From: Anaerohalosphaeraceae bacterium
GTDB taxonomy: Bacteria; Planctomycetota; Phycisphaerae; Sedimentisphaerales; Anaerohalosphaeraceae
NCBI GenBank assembly: GCA_963675525.2
Contig: CAXXSL010000001.1
Span: forward strand, 224,001 to 288,000
DNA: 64,000 nucleotides
Direction: 5' to 3'
Shown: piece after piece, positions 12,757-64,000 of the stretch
How the letters are laid out: the number at the start of each line of letters is the position of its first letter
Position numbering within the stretch: position 1 is the stretch's first letter
Notes under the pieces: generated by a model
Databases searched by the model: none
Told to the model about the DNA's origin: nothing
Seen by the model: only the letters and a program-made list of their open reading frames with translations
Program-made: the position numbers and the translations under genes

Positions 12757-12875
12757 TCAGTCCTCATATTTTTGCAGTTATGGTTACAGTCAATGCGCAA
12801 TACACAATACAGAACCGGCCCATTTACGGAGTGGGCCGATTTTGCATAAAACCAAGGTTTTATTTCTGTATTGAA

Positions 12876-13049
12876 TTAATCTTCTGTGCGGAGCTCAAGA
12901 ACTTTATTGCGAACCGCCTGAGCTGCCTGCTTGATTGTTTGCATCTGCTTGCGAACGCGCGTTCCGGCAGCTTTATTTCCGCCTTCTGCCTTGTTGATGT
13001 CTGCTTCAGTTTCCGCTACCAATTGTTTCAGTTGTTCGTATTCCTGCAT
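12876..13049 (-). CDS. Histone H1-like (Hc1 family) small DNA-binding protein, 57 aa, missing from the ORF track
   Basis: My translation: MQEYEQLKQLVAETEADINKAEGGNKAAGTRVRKQMQTIKQAAQAVRNKVLELRTED. It has the GNKAAGTRxRK signature and RBS TAGGAGG. Confidence 0.88.
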   Translation of the reverse strand: MQEYEQLKQLVAETEADINKAEGGNKAAGTRVRKQMQTIKQAAQAVRNKVLELRTED

Positions 13050-13153
13050 CAATCGTGCCTCCTAAGACAAATAAGGTTAAGATCAAAATTTATTACTGCC
13101 GAAAGTTTTACCTGAATCGGCAACTAAATGCAATTACAAAATTGGAAGAAAAA

Positions 13154-13630
13154 TTATCCAAAAAGCTTCCGAGTTAATTCCGCAATACGCTGGCCCCGGC
13201 GGACACATTGTTTCATCACACGATCATCCGGCTTGCCGATTGAGACAGGGCCGTAATGGTCGCCCTGCGGATCCCCCTGAATCACCATGCCGTGAATTAA
13301 CATCATGTTGTTGATTTCGCAAATGGTCGTTTCATTGCCGCCGCCAGTATTGGCTGAACTGCTGAAAGCGGCACCGACCTTTCCATCCAGCTTTCCGTGT
13401 TTGCTGACGGATTCATCGAATAGTGTGGCAACGGCAGCCGCCGCACGACCGTAATAAGTCGGAGAGCCAACGACAATGGCATCCGCATCAAGAAGCTCGT
13501 TTACTTTTGTTTCCGTGACACTTTTACATTTTGTAGAAAGACCGGATTGTTCCATCGCCTCGGCAATCGCTTTTGCCATCGCCTTGGTATTGCCGCTTTT
13601 TGAATAGTAAAGTACCAGTCCTTTGGCCAT
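13154..13630 (-). CDS. Flavodoxin / WrbA-like NAD(P)H-dependent oxidoreductase
   Basis: YYSKSGNTKAMA, GSPTYYG, GKVGAAFSSS..GGGNET. Confidence 0.88.
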   Translation of the reverse strand: MAKGLVLYYSKSGNTKAMAKAIAEAMEQSGLSTKCKSVTETKVNELLDADAIVVGSPTYYGRAAAAVATLFDESVSKHGKLDGKVGAAFSSSANTGGGNETTICEINNMMLIHGMVIQGDPQGDHYGPVSIGKPDDRVMKQCVRRGQRIAELTRKLFG

Positions 13631-35023: not shown

Positions 35024-35875
35024 TTGAGACGACGTTATGACCGACAATCCGTTTCAGGACAGTTGGTTCCGAGCCTTCCGAATTCGTATGCGGAACGGAC
35101 GAGCCGGCCGATCTATGCGCTGGCTTATCTGCTGGGTTTTCTGGCGCTGTACGAATTGGGCATTCTGTTTATCCAGTCTGAAGCGCTGACCCAGTCTCTG
35201 AACCAGCCGGAAGGACAGGTGGTGGCGTTCTACTGGGTCAGGACAGCACTGCATTATCTGGGTTTTTCGACACGCATGACATGGGTGGCTGCGCCCTTGG
35301 TGGTAATCGTGATTTTGCTGACGCTGCAGGCGACGAGCAAAAGTTCGTGGCACGTAAAAGCGGGTGATTTTATTTTGATGACCGTCGAGTGTGTACTGCT
35401 GGCGATCCCGCTGATCGTCCTGAGTCTGCTGCTGAACCGCTCGGGTTCATCGGAGCCGTCTGCCGCGACGGCGGCACTGAGCACAGCGGTTCAAAATCGC
35501 CTGTTGGTGGATATTGTGACCGGTATCGGGGCGGGGATTTACGAGGAACTCGTTTTCCGGCTGCTGCTGATCTGTTTCCTGATGCTGCTGTTTCAGGATG
35601 TCTGTGGACTTAAGAAAGGTACGGCGGTGTTTTGGTCGGTTGTTATTTCGGCGGTGACGTTCAGTGCACATCACCACTTTTTCTATGCGAATGGTCAGTT
35701 TTATCGGGGTGAGGCATTTACGGTCGGCAAGTTTATCTTTCGTGCCCTGGCGGGGGTTTACTTTGCGGCTCTTTATGCGATACGGGGGTTCGGTGTGACT
35801 GCGGGGACCCATGCATTTTACAATATTCTGGCGGCGTTTTTAAGAATGGTTGTTTTTACGATTCCCATAAAATAA
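35024..35875 (+). CDS. CPBP (CAAX/Abi) intramembrane protease
   Basis: GIYEELVFR, FSAHH, GTHAFYN. Confidence 0.88.
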   Translation: MRRRYDRQSVSGQLVPSLPNSYAERTSRPIYALAYLLGFLALYELGILFIQSEALTQSLNQPEGQVVAFYWVRTALHYLGFSTRMTWVAAPLVVIVILLTLQATSKSSWHVKAGDFILMTVECVLLAIPLIVLSLLLNRSGSSEPSAATAALSTAVQNRLLVDIVTGIGAGIYEELVFRLLLICFLMLLFQDVCGLKKGTAVFWSVVISAVTFSAHHHFFYANGQFYRGEAFTVGKFIFRALAGVYFAALYAIRGFGVTAGTHAFYNILAAFLRMVVFTIPIK

Positions 35876-56183: not shown

Positions 56184-57245
56184 ATGAGCAAACAGGTAAT
56201 TATTCATACCGATGGCGGCAGCCGAGGCAACCCCGGCCCCGGGGGAGCGGGATTTACTCTGGAAGACGAAAAGGGCAATGCGCTGAAGTCCTGCGGGCTT
56301 TATCTGGGAAGAACCACGAATAATGTTGCCGAATACACCGCCATTAAAGAAGCACTGAAAGCCGCCGGAGAGCTCGGCGCCGAATCCGTTAAGTTATTCA
56401 GCGACAGCGAATTGCTGGTGCGGCAGTTGAACGGTCAATACAAAGTCAAAAGCCCGAATCTCAAACCGTTTTACGCCGACTGCATGGAACTGTTGGGTGA
56501 GTTTAAGGCATGGCAGGTGATGCATGTGTACCGTGAGCAAAACTCCCGCGCCGATGCACTGGCCAACGAGGCGATGGATAAAAAAGCGGACGTTCAGTAT
56601 GGCCCCGCGGCGGCTGCAGAGCCCAAGGGAAAAAAGCTTCGGCTGGGAATTCTGCTCAGCGGCGGCGGACGGACGATGGTGAATATTCAGGACGAAATTA
56701 ATGCGGGACGCCTGAATGCCGAGATCGTACTGGTCATTAGTTCCCGTTCGGAAGTCAAAGGCAACGAACGTGCCTGTAAAATAGGACTGGAGCCCGTTAT
56801 CATTCGTAAGAAGGATTATCCTGAGCTTGCCGATTTCAGTAAGCGTATTGAAAAGGAACTGGATAAAGCTAACGTCGATCTGGTTGTTCAGGCCGGTTGG
56901 CTGTGTCTGTGGCATATCCCGGCCGATTATAAGAACCGCGTGATGAATATTCACCCGGCACTGCTGCCCAGTTTCGGCGGGCAGGGCATGTGGGGCCATC
57001 ATGTCCATGAGGCGGTACTGAAAGCCGGCTGCAAGGTTTCCGGCTGCACGGTACATTTCTGCACGAACGAATACGACGCCGGACCGATCATCGTCCAGCG
57101 GACCTGTGAAGTTAAGGATGATGACGATGCGGACACATTGGCATCACGCGTATTTCAGCAGGAATGCCTGGCCTACCCGGAGGCGATTCAGCTATTCGCC
57201 GAGGATCGTCTGCAGGTTTCCGGCGGCATTGTTAAACGCATTTAA
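56184..57245 (+). CDS. purN: Ribonuclease HI fused to phosphoribosylglycinamide formyltransferase
   Basis: RNase HI motifs DGGSRGNPG, TNNVAEY, SDSELL, N..ADALAN, then PurN motifs LLSGGG, NIHPALLP, GCTVHF, YDAGPII in one frame. Confidence 0.9.
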   Translation: MSKQVIIHTDGGSRGNPGPGGAGFTLEDEKGNALKSCGLYLGRTTNNVAEYTAIKEALKAAGELGAESVKLFSDSELLVRQLNGQYKVKSPNLKPFYADCMELLGEFKAWQVMHVYREQNSRADALANEAMDKKADVQYGPAAAAEPKGKKLRLGILLSGGGRTMVNIQDEINAGRLNAEIVLVISSRSEVKGNERACKIGLEPVIIRKKDYPELADFSKRIEKELDKANVDLVVQAGWLCLWHIPADYKNRVMNIHPALLPSFGGQGMWGHHVHEAVLKAGCKVSGCTVHFCTNEYDAGPIIVQRTCEVKDDDDADTLASRVFQQECLAYPEAIQLFAEDRLQVSGGIVKRI

Positions 57246-57293: not shown

Positions 57294-58688
57294 ATGTTTG
57301 GACAATCCATTCAGCATCGTTTATTAAAATTGAGCCGACCGGACCATATAGAGCATCGCAGTGATCGTGCGTTATTGGTTTGGAAAGATATTCCGCACTG
57401 GATGGTGGTCGATGGGGAGATGAAGACATTTCTCTTTTTGTTCGAAGATACCCGGAATTTTTCTGAAATGATCCGCAAAAACCCCCATCTTCAGCCTCAT
57501 CAAAAAGAACTGCTTGGCGTTGTTAAAGATCTGCATAAAAAAGGCGTTTTGACCAGTGTTGATGTCGCAGAGCTTAAGAATAAATCATTGAATTCGCTTT
57601 TGCCGATTGAAAACATCGCATGGAATCTTACCCACACATGCAATCTGCGGTGCCGGTATTGCTATTATGCCGACAGCCTGAATCATTCAAACGGCAGCGA
57701 GCTTTCGGCGGATGAAGTCATCAGCTTTCTTAAAATCGTCAAGCCGTTTATTTCCAAACGCGCAACCCTGACGGTATTGGGTGGTGAGCCGCTGTTGTAT
57801 CCTGATAAGCTGATTGAAGTCTGCCGATTTGCACGCAAGATGCGAATGAATCCGCTGATCTCCACGAATGGGACGCTGATCGATGATGCCTTTGCCAAAG
57901 AAGCCAAGCGGATTGGGCTGGAGATTCAGGTTTCTCTTGACGGTCCCGATGCCGAAATGAATGACCCGTTACGGGGTGCGGGAACATTTGAGAAAATCCG
58001 AAAAGGCGTGGCGATTCTGAATAAGCATGATGTGCATACGATTCTCAGTATGGTGTGCTGTCGAAGTAATTTCGATTCGTTGAAAGATTTTCTGGATTTG
58101 GCAATTGAATGGGGCGTTGCCGAGGCCCGGTTTATCCCGCTTAAACAGATGGGCGGGGCCAAGTCCGAAGCGATGGAAATGGTTTCGCATTATGAAATTG
58201 TTACGAAGGCGTATCAACTGCTTAAAGCCTATCCAGCGTATCGGGATTTACTGGGGCGGGATTGCCTGTCGATTCTTGCCAATACCTGCCGGTATTCAGC
58301 CCGGCGGGATTCCTGCGGCACCGGTTTGCAGACGTTTTTGCTGGATGCCGACGGGGCGTTGTATCCGTGCCTGAATCTGAATCAACCGGCGTATGTGTTC
58401 GGTAACATCCGCGATAAATCGCTCGATTTTGCGAAAATTTGGAAAAAACACGAATCCCTGGGTAACATTCGCACCTGCACAAGCGTCCATAATACAGAGA
58501 GGCCTTGCAGCAACTGTTTGGTGAAGTATTGGTGCCTGGGCGGATGCCGGGGCGAGACTGTGGTCAATACGGGGGATTTAAAAGCTCAAAGTATCCATTG
58601 CGATGACTTAAAAAAGACGATCCTTGAAATATTCTGGATTCTTGCGGAAAATCCCGATATGATAAAAGCATACGAGCAAATGGGCTAA
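57294..58688 (+). CDS. Radical SAM/SPASM-domain protein (putative peptide/protein maturase)
   Basis: CNLRCRYC, GGEP, SPASM CGTG...GALYPC...CSNC...WCLGGC...C; ~100-aa N-terminal extension. Confidence 0.92.
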   Translation: MFGQSIQHRLLKLSRPDHIEHRSDRALLVWKDIPHWMVVDGEMKTFLFLFEDTRNFSEMIRKNPHLQPHQKELLGVVKDLHKKGVLTSVDVAELKNKSLNSLLPIENIAWNLTHTCNLRCRYCYYADSLNHSNGSELSADEVISFLKIVKPFISKRATLTVLGGEPLLYPDKLIEVCRFARKMRMNPLISTNGTLIDDAFAKEAKRIGLEIQVSLDGPDAEMNDPLRGAGTFEKIRKGVAILNKHDVHTILSMVCCRSNFDSLKDFLDLAIEWGVAEARFIPLKQMGGAKSEAMEMVSHYEIVTKAYQLLKAYPAYRDLLGRDCLSILANTCRYSARRDSCGTGLQTFLLDADGALYPCLNLNQPAYVFGNIRDKSLDFAKIWKKHESLGNIRTCTSVHNTERPCSNCLVKYWCLGGCRGETVVNTGDLKAQSIHCDDLKKTILEIFWILAENPDMIKAYEQMG

Positions 58689-58699
58689 AGGAGCGTACA

Positions 58700-59008
58700 A
58701 TGCAGGTATTTGGGCAAAGTTCGACAGTGCTGGCCGAGTCGAAACCTCCCTATGTTCATCTGGGATACATGTCCGCCTGTCCAAGCACGGGATTCGGAGT
58801 ATTCGATTTTGAGTTATTTGGTCCCGGGGTAATTTTGTTTTTGGTGGGTTATCTGATCGCGATGAAGATCAATTACGGTTGGCTCATCGGCGGCATCGCG
58901 GGGTTGTTAAAGAAATTCGGGCTTCTCAAAATTCTGGCAGCGATTCTATCTATGCTGTTGCTTTTTGCGACCGTCTTTGTATGCTATTTCGCGTGGATGT
59001 TTGATTAA
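58700..59008 (+). CDS. Small membrane protein with N-terminal GQS...PYVHLGY motif
   Basis: RBS AAGGAG, 11 nt after the rSAM stop; hydrophobic C-terminal two-thirds. Confidence 0.8.
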   Translation: MQVFGQSSTVLAESKPPYVHLGYMSACPSTGFGVFDFELFGPGVILFLVGYLIAMKINYGWLIGGIAGLLKKFGLLKILAAILSMLLLFATVFVCYFAWMFD

Positions 59009-59056
59009 AGAAGACATGAATACAAGGACGCAAGTATACAAGGAAGGATAGCCGGC

Positions 59057-59827
59057 ATGGAAATCCTCGGACAAAGCACGAAAGCAACCACACAGCATCC
59101 TTATATGCATTTGGGATATCTGGCAGCAAGCAACCGGGATGTATTTATGATTCCTTTAATTCCCGGATTATTATTGCTTGTTTTTGGGAGCCTTCAATTA
59201 TATTTTCGCAAGAAACGTTATTTCAAAGCAAGTATTGCTTCAATTATTGGGGGACTTATATTCCTTACGATGGCGATTTCGTTTTTCTTTGATAAACCGA
59301 ATATACCTTCAAGGATTCTAACCAGTATAAATTATCACGCTTTACACATATCATTGTCAAGTTTCGCCAAAGAGAACGACAATAACCTGCCAGATTCAAA
59401 GCACTGGTGTGATTTGTTAATTTCCGGAACTTATGCAGAACCGAAATATTTCACTCTTTCGGGTGTTAAAGAAGGTGAAAGTGCATATGCTTTGAATGAG
59501 AATGTCCTTAATCTGACATTGTCTGAAATTCCGGCGGATATGGTGCTTTTATTTGAAACCAATCTGGGGATTGAAGAGGAGCGGACAGGCAGTTTTCTTT
59601 CAAGAGATTACGTAAAGTCTTTGGGGATCGAAAAAGATCATAAGATATTCCAGAATCGCTGGAACCAAGTTGGCGGTGCGGAGGATATTACGACTGAATA
59701 TCACAAGGGAGAGGGGGCTTGTGTTTTGTTTGCCGGTGGACATTGCGAATTTGTAAAGACAGGAGATATTGCGACATTAAAATGGCATCCCGGAGAATCC
59801 GAGATGCCATTGGAAATATCTCAATAG
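59057..59827 (+). CDS. Membrane protein with N-terminal GQS...PYMHLGY motif and C-terminal H-X9-DG-like domain
   Basis: Two TM helices, then WCDLL, YALN, PADMVLLFET, WNQVGG, HKGEGACVLFAGGH. Confidence 0.8.
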   Translation: MEILGQSTKATTQHPYMHLGYLAASNRDVFMIPLIPGLLLLVFGSLQLYFRKKRYFKASIASIIGGLIFLTMAISFFFDKPNIPSRILTSINYHALHISLSSFAKENDNNLPDSKHWCDLLISGTYAEPKYFTLSGVKEGESAYALNENVLNLTLSEIPADMVLLFETNLGIEEERTGSFLSRDYVKSLGIEKDHKIFQNRWNQVGGAEDITTEYHKGEGACVLFAGGHCEFVKTGDIATLKWHPGESEMPLEISQ

Positions 59828-59871: not shown

Positions 59872-60945
59872 TTATTCTTTCCCATCCCAGAGGTAGAGCA
59901 GCCGCGGGGCGGCGAGTTTGTCCAGCAGTTCGCTTTCGATATTGATCGTTCCTTTTTTGCTCTGTGCTCCCATTATTGACCAGACAGAGAATTTTTGATT
60001 GTACTCAACAATCCGCGCATTGGATAGATGCGCCATTTCTTCTATTTTCGTGACCGCGGCGTCAAAGTAGCCGACCTCGTCGATCAGGCCCTTATCCATG
60101 GCTTCGGGAGCGGTGAAAATGCTGCCGTCGGCCAGTTGACGCACCTCGTGTTCGGCCAGGTTTGGGCGGCCTTCATCGACCAGGTTCACAAACCGGTCAT
60201 ACGCCGGGGTGATGATCTTTTCGCTGAGATACGTCTTTTGTTCGTCTGTCGGTTCATGGAACATACTGGGCCAGTCTTTGCGTTTGCCGCTCTTGATCGT
60301 GACCGGATTGATGCCGAGCTTTTCTTCGAGCAGTTCCTTGACGACCATATAGTTCATGATGACGCCGATGGAGCCGGTGATAGTGGTCGGTTCGGCCATG
60401 ATCTCATCGCAGGCGACCGCCGAGTAATAGCCGCCGGACGCGGCGACCGATTGCATGAATCCAAGGACGGGCTTGTTCGTGGTTTCTTTAAACCGGCTGA
60501 TACAGTAGTGGATCTGATCGCTGGCTGAAACCCCGCCGCCGGGACTGTTGATGCGGAGGATCAGGGCTTTTACATTGGTGTCATTTTCCGCACGTTCGAC
60601 CTGCATGTTGACCCACTTGCTCATTTCGCCGTCAATGATGCCGACGAGGTTGATGACCGCGATCTTCTGACGATGTGAACCATCCATCAGGATTCGTTCT
60701 TCCAGACCGTCATCGTGATAGCCGCCCCCGCTTCCGCCGGAGAGAACAGCACCCATGGCGATGATACCAATAAACATAATGCCGTTGGCCAGAACCGACA
60801 GGGTGATCACAATGCCCCAGAATATCTTCCAGCCGGAGCCCTTTTTCTTTTTGGGGTATGGGTTATACATCGGGGCCGTGAAGTCCGGGATGTTTGTGGC
60901 CGGCGGGGTCTGGGGGGCATTAGGGTCCTGTGTAAAATCGTCCAT
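59872..60945 (-). CDS. sppA: Signal peptide peptidase SppA (36K type)
   Basis: RINSPGG, AASGGYY, TITGSIGV. Confidence 0.93.
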   Translation of the reverse strand: MDDFTQDPNAPQTPPATNIPDFTAPMYNPYPKKKKGSGWKIFWGIVITLSVLANGIMFIGIIAMGAVLSGGSGGGYHDDGLEERILMDGSHRQKIAVINLVGIIDGEMSKWVNMQVERAENDTNVKALILRINSPGGGVSASDQIHYCISRFKETTNKPVLGFMQSVAASGGYYSAVACDEIMAEPTTITGSIGVIMNYMVVKELLEEKLGINPVTIKSGKRKDWPSMFHEPTDEQKTYLSEKIITPAYDRFVNLVDEGRPNLAEHEVRQLADGSIFTAPEAMDKGLIDEVGYFDAAVTKIEEMAHLSNARIVEYNQKFSVWSIMGAQSKKGTINIESELLDKLAAPRLLYLWDGKE

Positions 60946-62601: not shown

Positions 62602-63920
62602 CTAATCTTTCGGCAGTTTAAACTCGTATTCATGGATTTCATTGTCAAATGAAATGTTATCCGGTGGTTTAATGTCAAGTTTCTCGGTCTTTTTTTTGAT
62701 TTGACTCCGCGATAAATCCTCGCCCTGACATTTTAATTTAAAACCATCCTCTGTTTTGATGATTAGAAAGGGTTTATTGCTGAACAGATCTTTCGGGCTG
62801 TTGAAGGGTATTGTTTTTGGGATTTTCTTTGTTTTTGGATATTGAATTAGAAGTCTTATTCCGGCTTCCAAAGCATTCAGTTTTGTGCGGATTTTTGTGT
62901 CGATGGAAAACACTGTTGTGCTGTATGATCCATAAATACTTGTAAATAAAAAATCACAATTTTCGATATATTCGATGTCGACATCTTCAAATGCAGGAAT
63001 TTGTCTGCCAGAAATATCGAATTTTTTATCAAGGACATCTATATACTCTATGAAGTATTGTTTGAATTGGTTGCGAAGTTCATCTCCAAGTTCACTACAC
63101 TTTTGCACTGCCTGAGGGTAGGGCAGGTCAAGATAACTTTGACGTTTCAGCATGTAATCTCGGTAAAACTTCAGATTACGTATATAGAAATCTTCGCTTA
63201 ATTTTTGAACAGGAATTCCCAAGTGTCGGTCCAATATGTGTCTTTATAGATGTATTCCTTGGGGTGCGTGAGGATTCTTGTGGTGTATGCAATTTCGTGA
63301 TCTATCGTATCTTTGTATGATATTTTTTGACGTTTCGATTCATTTCTGATAAAAGTTTTTGCCATATAGAGGTCTGTGACTTGGCAGTTGGTGTGACGAT
63401 TTAGGTATTCACGGATATCATCATAGGTCATTGATCTGAGGCCCAGAGCAACTAAATGGTCAATTAAGACGCCTGAGTCTATGTGTGAAGCAAGTTGGAG
63501 GACTGGTTCGAATAAGGTGTTAATTCCTATATCCGGGTCTTTTCTTTCTTTATACTTGCCATCTGCGAGAAGTAATAATGTCGTCTTTTTGGCTTTGCTT
63601 AAATAGGGGTTAACCGAGTAGATGCCATCTGCCAATGGATCAAACTGCCAGTCACAATGTTCGATTTGTGCGGCTTTTTTTAGCAGGTCGATGACGGGCT
63701 GCTGGCGGATGAGGTATTGTTCTACCTGCGGAGTGATTTTGACATCTCCGGTTGTATAATCGGACAGGTCAAAACCGTTGGGTTCTTCGTAGAGGTCGAA
63801 GGCTTTCTGGTACCAGTAGGCGGCGTTGTCGGGGGTGAAGTTGTTTGGGTCGTATTTGGCGAATGCGGAGAGTGATAGTATCAAAATAGCCAACACGCAT
63901 AATTTTACCCTGTTTGGCAT
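62602..63920 (-). pseudogene. Secreted hypothetical protein split by an apparent frameshift near 63240
   Basis: The ORF from MPNRVKL (signal peptide, DNAAYWYQKAF, HCDW, LIDHLVA) overlaps the second ORF 62602-63234, which has no clear RBS. Confidence 0.6.
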
Positions 63921-64000
63921 TGTTCTATTCCTTCTCTTGAACCCTTTCAGGGTTATCGGGCGACTCACGTCGCCGCGCTTTTGTTTATCTTCATCCATGC

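Follow-up and report, generated by a model that had tools for sequence, protein, structure and literature searches.

Radical S-adenosylmethionine (SAM) enzymes that join His to Tyr are known from the dynobactin pathway, where, according to PMC10288494, one enzyme makes both a Trp-Asn C-C and a His-Tyr N-C link; PMC10125368 gives the dynobactin core as WNSNVHSYRF. Furthermore, cyclophane synthases act on motifs of three to five residues, including His, as described in PMC11499958. A partnership with membrane proteins is presented in PMC12452194, in which MNIO enzymes are linked to TIGR04222 proteins; these are integral to the membrane and lack a signal peptide, and the region putatively modified in them is predicted to lie in the periplasm. 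This is the nearest architectural analogue in print to the system studied here. We analyzed a window of 64,000 nucleotides (nt), i.e., the whole stretch from position 224,001 to 288,000 of contig CAXXSL010000001.1, from the 4.12 Mb genome of an Anaerohalosphaeraceae bacterium, and identified a three-gene cassette encoding a radical SAM enzyme and two integral membrane proteins, P2 and P3, which share a short tag at their N-termini. Our data indicate with high confidence that this tag is the partner of the enzyme.

All three genes lie close together on the forward strand, as the initial annotation had described. The enzyme (57294..58688, 464 residues) is followed after 11 nt by P2 (58700..59008, 102 residues) and, after a further gap of 48 nt, by P3 (59057..59827, 256 residues). 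Purine-rich stretches resembling ribosome-binding sites precede both P2 and P3. The first copy of the tag comprises residues 1-26 of P2 (58700..58777, with Y18, H20 and Y23; tag profile E-value 9e-10) and the second one residues 1-24 of P3 (59057..59128, with Y16, H18 and Y21; E-value 1.6e-11). The motif GQS…PYxHLGY is indeed common to both proteins despite synonymous differences in their codons. A genome of the same genus (G194) shows an empty site, at which purN lies 75 nt from sppA, and we therefore consider the enzyme, P2 and P3 a cassette.

To place this cassette among its relatives, we employed 41 distinct loci with an enzyme of the same clade and 90 loci whose radical SAM enzyme lies outside this clade, obtained from genome and metagenome scans. 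Five duplicate loci and the broken clade loci L055 and L056 were left out of this count; the negative set consists of distant radical SAM enzymes, which made up the bulk of the metagenome scan returns. A tag was called when a start codon lay 10-32 residues before H[LVIMG][GAM]Y and a hydrophobic helix was present within 60 residues. This rule yielded 58 tags in 37 of the 41 clade loci, and a profile hidden Markov model added the tag of L030 (38/41), whereas no tag was found in the 90 loci of other radical SAM enzymes (802,852 bases). As the rule was written after the clade tags had been seen, only the zero in the latter loci represents an independent control. The predicted co-occurrence of tag and enzyme clade is supported by these counts. 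Besides L030, the misses of the rule concern L051, whose tag lies on another contig directly after the enzyme end, L042, where the contig stops inside the enzyme, and L044, a true orphan whose clade enzyme has no tagged neighbor. In a FastTree phylogeny the tag-linked enzymes form a single clade of 37 sequences (support 0.964), 35 of which have an adjacent tag, and up to five tagged paralogues are found in one locus (L021).

A six-frame scan of the window's own genome for PY.HLG gave three matches, namely P2, P3 and a junk frame of 36 residues, and at E<0.1 the tag profile matched P2 and P3 only. Seven of 301 genomes of the class carry the tag, five of them together with the enzyme at E≤1e-60. 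In the remaining two, the enzyme is split and stops immediately before the tag (G244), or the second tagged gene marks the end of the contig, so that the expected place of the enzyme is cut off (G189). Among 401 genomes of the phylum, tag matches occurred in five and enzyme matches in seven; one tag match (G470, E-value 4e-4) was rejected as a false positive over an integrase-like region, and all four true tag carriers have the enzyme. Substrates in trans were not found, as the 12 tag matches in five genomes all lie at the enzyme locus except for one at a contig end. Titles of the clade loci include Planctomycetota, Armatimonadota, Lentisphaerae, WS1, Riflebacteria, a Deltaproteobacteria metagenome-assembled genome and two archaea. 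The system is widespread, occurring in many uncultivated bacteria and some archaea, but rare, being present in about 1-2% of the Planctomycetota genomes searched. Among the sequencing runs listed as holding it, none is an RNA run. In L035 and L051/G244 the clade enzyme is frameshifted (two frames) and still lies beside intact tagged genes, reflecting either assembly error or decay. The archaeal members (L048:11089-11313 and L060:11408-11644, one of them titled Thorarchaeota) carry an FFHGMY tag on a single-helix protein of 74-78 residues and are basal in the clade.

The consensus of the tag spans 24 residues, M-[KR]-I-x-[AG]-[QH]-S…P-[YF]-x-H-[LV]-G-Y-x-[AS]-A, and comprises two parts, namely a strand of alternating pattern, M-[KR]-I-x-[AG]-[QH]-S, and an aromatic core, between which lies a Pro-rich spacer that varies in length. 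The His and the Tyr are present without exception in the 56 tags aligned. A 30-position profile of the tag matched 241 protein clusters among 1.84 billion representatives; the statistics given here for 149 or 150 tagged proteins are drawn from the 150 of these clusters that were listed, 149 of which contain H-x-x-Y. In nearly all 150 the match starts at residue 1-3, and the His occupies position 17 or 18 in 142, placing the pair at a fixed distance from the N-terminus. Relative to the His, Tyr or Phe is found at -2 (89% and 10%, respectively), Leu or Val at +1 and Gly or Ala at +2 (99%), and the core is followed by small residues, with Ala or Ser at +5 in 97% and Ala at +6 in 86%. The conserved part is H-x-[GA]-Y; of the motif GQS…PYxHLGY as originally defined, this portion holds, while GQS is not the conserved part. 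Y/F-x-H is present in 56 of the 58 locus tags and would fit the three-residue aromatic-X-X pattern of DynA and triceptide synthase substrates, yet the invariant pair is H-x-x-Y. A subtype, MRIE…QHVGY, occurs in the Armatimonadota/WS1 loci. Within the first 30 residues, Cys is present in only 9/149 tagged proteins. We rejected thioether chemistry, which is unlikely here since the tag has no conserved Cys.

Two helices were predicted in 135 of the 149 tagged proteins, one in 11 and four in three. In the two-helix proteins, Lys/Arg residues average 0.9 on the N-terminal side of helix 1, 4.4 between the helices and 1.9 behind helix 2; 131/135 have more of them in the loop than on the N-terminal side, and one has fewer. 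The tag is short and soluble, and its core is hydrophobic enough to span the membrane in none of the 149 proteins. Judged by the positive-inside rule and the basic loop, both tag and cargo are predicted to face the outside of the cell membrane. The spacer between tag and helix 1 ranges from 4 to 76 residues; in P0189, a low-complexity stalk of ~70 Ala/Thr/Ser/Gly residues lies between them. The cargo behind the hairpin is swappable, being GspG-like, H-X9-DG-like as in P3, of the TPR type (L052) or absent. A SAGPDG-type motif as in GspG is present in 66/149 proteins, T2SSG (PF08334) matched 11/150 (eight above cut-off), and DUF1559 was found in P0255; 30/149 proteins comprise at most 125 residues and have little or no cargo. 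A search of the ESM Atlas with the tagged protein P0122 returned GspG-like leads only (scores 0.84-0.86). Position and cargo in the library matches bear out the suggestion of a portable N-terminal tag on membrane proteins. Prepilin processing was rejected, given that a regular expression for the prepilin motif G|F-x-x-x-E matched one of 149 proteins. The tagged partners matched no lipoprotein or signal-peptide family, TIGR04134 was not found in the two window proteins and 20 further tagged proteins scanned, and no gene family of type II secretion systems or pili recurs near the clade loci. A third tagged open reading frame (ORF) of L023, near 12800-13154, combines the tag with a long linker rich in Pro and Ala, a single helix at the C-terminal end and a tail rich in Arg, a layout resembling a sorting signal.

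In P2, which has orthologues in the genomes G028 and G145, the tag is followed by a two-helix hairpin (hydrophobic segments 39-57 and 78-96) without cargo. P3 likewise has a hairpin (segments 28-46 and 60-78, RKKRYFK lying in the loop) and, in addition, a predicted extracytoplasmic C-terminal domain of ~160 residues (59309..59791, forward strand), which is H-X9-DG/DUF1559-like and common to tag-less paralogues elsewhere in the genome. The initial annotation had P2 and P3 diverge completely into transmembrane helices behind the motif. The hairpins are present in both proteins, but P3 contains more than membrane helices, and BLASTP aligns residues 1-52 of P2 and P3 at 38% identity (E-value 1e-6); thus, the two are related over the tag and the first helix. 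Tag-less homologs of P3 are named H-X9-DG proteins or carry DUF4190, and TIGR04294 was detected at E≤0.01 in 7 of 21 aligned P3 relatives, P3 itself not being among them. Since this cargo family has tag-less members and paralogues in the same genome, the tag appears to have been grafted onto an existing lineage-specific protein. In an AlphaFold2 (AF2) model of P3, the tag region has a pLDDT below 50. Foldseek returned nothing for this model at E≤0.001 and no significant match to a pilin fold, and VIA-align gave only generic helical-hairpin matches, by which the cargo was barely tested.

The enzyme scores above the Pfam cut-offs for PF04055 Radical_SAM (83.3 versus 29.5) and PF13186 SPASM (34.9 versus 21.5). 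Among the best 25 NCBIfam matches listed, no family reached its cut-off: StsB came closest in score (145 of 625 bits), and PapB (114/340), SCIFF (81/425), DynA (106/450), TIGR04133 (75/425), anSME (99/349) and QhpD (86/453) also fell below, as did YhhB for the clade member L038 (60/445). By these profile comparisons, the enzyme family is unnamed and belongs to none of the curated families tested. The homolog search gave at least 120 enzyme clusters among the matches listed, the window's own included, the others sharing 41-80% identity with it; their source names include Planctomycetota, Armatimonadota and Lentisphaerota. The AF2 model of the enzyme (pLDDT 93) starts with strands at residues 18-22, 25-30 and 35-40, followed by helices at 41-51, 56-62 and 64-83. 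In Foldseek, CteB and TigE were the top matches over the full length (best TM-score 0.74, to TigE), with a structural identity of 15-19% to the closest maturases. The two are also the closest solved relatives by profile (CteB, 5WHY/5WGG; TigE, 8VPO), with the match beginning at residue 39-40. On the grounds of this modeled secondary structure and the CteB/TigE matches, rather than of a dedicated profile, we assign residues ~10-90 (57321..57563, forward strand) as a domain resembling the recognition element (RRE) of peptides that ribosomes synthesize and that are modified post-translationally (RiPPs), in agreement with the proposed RRE-like nature of the ~100-residue N-terminal extension. This domain is predicted to bind the first residues of the tag, and its residues R22, W30, W36 and D40 are kept in 33-34 of 34 tag-linked enzymes.

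The CxxxCxxC motif (C116, C120 and C123; 57639..57662, forward strand) is intact in all 34 tag-linked enzymes that cover the position (35 aligned). The SPASM region (58287..58601, forward strand) contains eight Cys residues, C332, C341, C359, C405, C408, C414, C418 and C436. C332 is kept in 33/35 enzymes, C405 in 30/35 (His in the other five) and the remaining six in 35/35, and this pattern suggests that the enzyme probably holds two auxiliary clusters, both fully ligated. Clade-specific invariants are E277, R279, D323, N361, W413 and E421, and six positions near the catalytic site are occupied by Y124, L162, S190 or T191, S214, L360 and N361. C255 is kept in 23/35 enzymes only; as it is not conserved across the clade, a role as the hydrogen donor of an epimerase is unlikely, and this function was rejected. 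The enzyme itself starts with MFGQS, as had been noted. We discarded the idea of a self-tag, since close orthologs start with MFGRD, MFGRS, MFGLS or MFRRS and MFGQS is thus not conserved.

Upstream, the cassette is flanked by an RNase H–PurN fusion (56184..57245, forward strand; assigned by Pfam), which directly adjoins sppA in G194; this formyltransferase fusion is kept in five of five family genomes checked. Downstream lies a gene for the S49 signal peptide peptidase SppA (59872..60945, reverse strand; assigned by Pfam). SppA is present at the cassette-less site of G194; it therefore lies outside the cassette and was rejected as its dedicated protease. The only other gene family recurring across unrelated clade loci encodes a CPBP intramembrane protease, which is linked in seven loci of the MRIE subclade. 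MrtS and MrtJ, both sorting proteases, are among its best NCBIfam matches but stay under the cut-off. In L038 (7411-10001), three tandem CPBP paralogues lie directly upstream of the enzyme. The statement that the cluster contains no protease holds for the cassette of the window, where no CPBP gene is found, but not for this subclade. BLAST of the window's own genome gave no match to the linked-type CPBPs at E≤1e-4, and the five CPBPs of that genome were accordingly rejected as proteases of the system. An unlinked Rce1-like CPBP gene lies 21 kb upstream of the cassette (~35501-35830, forward strand). Near the end of the window (62602-63998, reverse strand), two ORFs of 210 and 266 residues in a stretch of lower GC content (35-48%) have no convincing Pfam or NCBIfam match. 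Elsewhere, distant RRE-type radical SAM enzymes adjoin precursors whose N-terminus is twin-Arg-like and which contain Cys/Gly repeats (C-x5-C-GGGGG-x-C), found at L073:7614-7880, L078:2480-2758, L088:744-1238, L107:5394-5723 and L114:1869-2531. The three of these loci that were tested had no NCBIfam match at E≤1e-8, and the precursors possibly belong to a separate exported thioether system.

With this information at hand, we consider it distinctly likely that the enzyme covalently modifies the tag, and we infer a His–Tyr cross-link within H-x-G-Y as the most likely chemistry. We give about an even chance to a reading in which the enzyme binds the tag and cross-links His to Tyr while the tag is still cytoplasmic, with flipping to the outer face as the next event. 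The M-[KR]-I-x-[AG]-[QH]-S strand would serve as the leader bound by the RRE, with the Pro-rich 8-10 residues as a spacer setting Y/F-x-H-[LV]-G-Y in the active site. A 5'-deoxyadenosyl radical would abstract hydrogen from the Tyr C-beta, which would couple to the His ring (-2 Da), and a second ring might connect the upstream Tyr/Phe to the His C-beta (-4 Da, darobactin-like). Modification would take place on the nascent chain, before N-out insertion of the first helix, and because of this order no ABC exporter would be needed. The ring would stay displayed on the hairpin, usually with a pilin-like head on the same side, and might function in ligand or metal binding, adhesion or signaling. In its widest form, this reading describes a portable 24-residue module through which a membrane protein of any kind would receive a His-Tyr macrocycle, or possibly a Tyr-His-Tyr bicycle, from one radical SAM enzyme while it is being synthesized. 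N-out insertion alone would export the ring, which would be presented next to a pilin-like head and act as a protein-derived cofactor or ligand; the system would have spread by transfer across bacteria of the Planctomycetes-Verrucomicrobia-Chlamydiae group, Armatimonadota and archaea. We put this wider form forward only tentatively, with some doubt.

The same chemistry might also operate on a membrane protein that acts as an export vehicle, with a protease cutting near Y-x-[AS]-A or helix 1 to release a small cyclic peptide, i.e., a transporter-free RiPP. The CPBP genes of the MRIE subclade with their MrtS/MrtJ similarity, the small residues at +5 and +6, the sorting-signal-like order of motif, helix and basic cluster, and the 30 short proteins nearly devoid of cargo are in line with this. 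We regard it as unlikely, since the remaining clade loci share no recurrent protease family, BLAST shows no counterpart of the linked CPBPs in the window's genome, SppA lies outside the cassette, a large and conserved cargo domain is retained by the majority of members, and the spacer to helix 1 varies widely in length. Similarly, the tag might serve only as a cytoplasmic docking peptide that tethers the enzyme to the membrane, the true substrate being a lipid, a small molecule or the cargo. The tag-less enzymes L206 and L044, whose cluster motif is intact, would suit such a role, as would the tag-less DUF4190 homologs of P3, which carry an extra helix at the equivalent N-terminus and in one case a zinc ribbon. 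The charge bias predicts an N-out orientation, however, and no gene family besides CPBP recurs in the clade loci. Moreover, five tagged paralogues in one locus are typical of substrates, and the two-part tag with variable spacer and invariant aromatics has the look of leader and core, which makes pure docking very improbable.

A third alternative keeps the enzyme acting on the H-x-G-Y core, yet without a cross-link, by Tyr cleavage or rearrangement, Leu/Val oxidation or cyclopropanation, or a backbone cut at Gly that leaves a new N-terminus or cofactor. The many clade-specific invariants suggest a dedicated chemistry, TigE gave the best TM-score, and the residues at the six catalytic-site positions differ both from the set that PMC10288494 lists for StsB (Y,T,I,S,K,L) and from that for CteB (F,F,T,S,H,Q). 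Two invariant aromatic residues around a small one are nevertheless the usual signature of ring formation, and the variability of C255 speaks against an epimerase. In addition, spliceases act on the order Tyr-Gly, which is reversed here, and MftC needs a C-terminal Tyr, which the tag does not offer. We assign this alternative a low probability.

Several observations weigh against a cross-linked tag as the general function of the family. Four homologs have no tagged neighbor although they keep most RRE residues, namely L044 and a nested offshoot in three genomes of one Planctomycetota family (L206:1435-2859, L208:897-2330 and L209:1408-2433), in which no tag was detected at E≤0.1. Such orthologs had been named beforehand as evidence that would speak against the coupling, which they do in part. 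S252, E277, I281 and R322 are changed in all four, and N361 in the three that reach it. L208 also lacks CxxxCxxC and is a pseudoenzyme, while the motif is intact in L206 and L044. All four have thus lost clade-invariant residues and, by their sequences, appear decayed or repurposed. A gene that is ExbD-like by eye precedes the tag-less enzyme in two of the three offshoot loci. The genomes of the broken clade loci L055 and L056 contain no tag anywhere, and a look at RRE/tag co-variation gave no clear RRE change tracking the MRIE subtype. Because the profile was built on these very residues, tag conservation among the 150 library matches is partly circular; the N-terminal position of the tag and the downstream hairpin are free of this. 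The upstream aromatic residue is absent in 2 of 58 locus tags. For a ring of four residues, H-x-x-Y, the literature covered offers no direct precedent, the known His-Tyr and triceptide rings being three-residue ones. TigE, the closest fold, is by its title a former of cyclopropylglycine, so that the fold does not predict the chemistry. Finally, the topology was derived from a hydropathy script and the positive-inside rule rather than from a trained predictor.

Taken together, our analysis would carry RiPP-style radical chemistry beyond free peptides, namely to integral membrane proteins at their N-termini, without a transporter and usually without a protease. It defines a family by the above enzyme clusters and 241 substrate clusters, for which there is no matching Pfam or NCBIfam model, and offers a way into the GspG-like and H-X9-DG proteins of Planctomycetota, which are abundant but unexplained. 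If the cross-link is confirmed, the four-residue His-Tyr ring would represent a new radical SAM chemistry and a compact tool for protein cyclization in the form of a genetically encoded tag, and the system would stand as a third way in between RiPPs and the maturation of protein cofactors.

We did not find the enzyme-tag system described in the literature by title or beginning of the abstract, most subscription journals lying outside the coverage, and no paper pairing 'HLGY' with 'radical SAM' was found. HLGY and HVGY are absent from the supplements of PMC10288494 and PMC9062424 in their possibly incomplete form. By analogy, the enzyme may work in a manner resembling RRE-dependent cyclophane synthases. 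With the dynobactin/darobactin and triceptide synthases (DynA, DarE, HaaB, HtkB and YhhB) it shares a radical SAM/SPASM architecture directed at short aromatic motifs that include His and Tyr. It differs from them in its H-x-x-Y motif, its fused RRE and the use of an integral membrane protein N-terminus instead of a free precursor, and their profiles do not recognize it. The RRE-fused SPASM maturases CteB, TigE, SuiB and StsB have domain order and fold in common with our enzyme, whereas their structural identity to it is low and the conserved C332 upstream of the SPASM motif is an extra Cys of the present clade. anSME and QhpD are radical SAM enzymes that act on exported proteins. Together with the TIGR04133/TIGR04134 radical SAM–lipoprotein pairs, they resemble the present system in that a SPASM enzyme is tied to exported or membrane-bound proteins and not to a small peptide; the enzyme stays below their cut-offs, however, and its partners share only the 24-residue module. 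GspG pseudopilins (PF08334) and the H-X9-DG/DUF1559 prepilin-like proteins correspond to the cargo domain of the tagged proteins, which differ from them by the additional N-terminal helix and tag and by the near absence of the prepilin motif. The MNIO/TIGR04222 pairs of PMC12452194 differ from the tag system in enzyme class, in their Cys-based C-terminal regions and in a looser genetic link.

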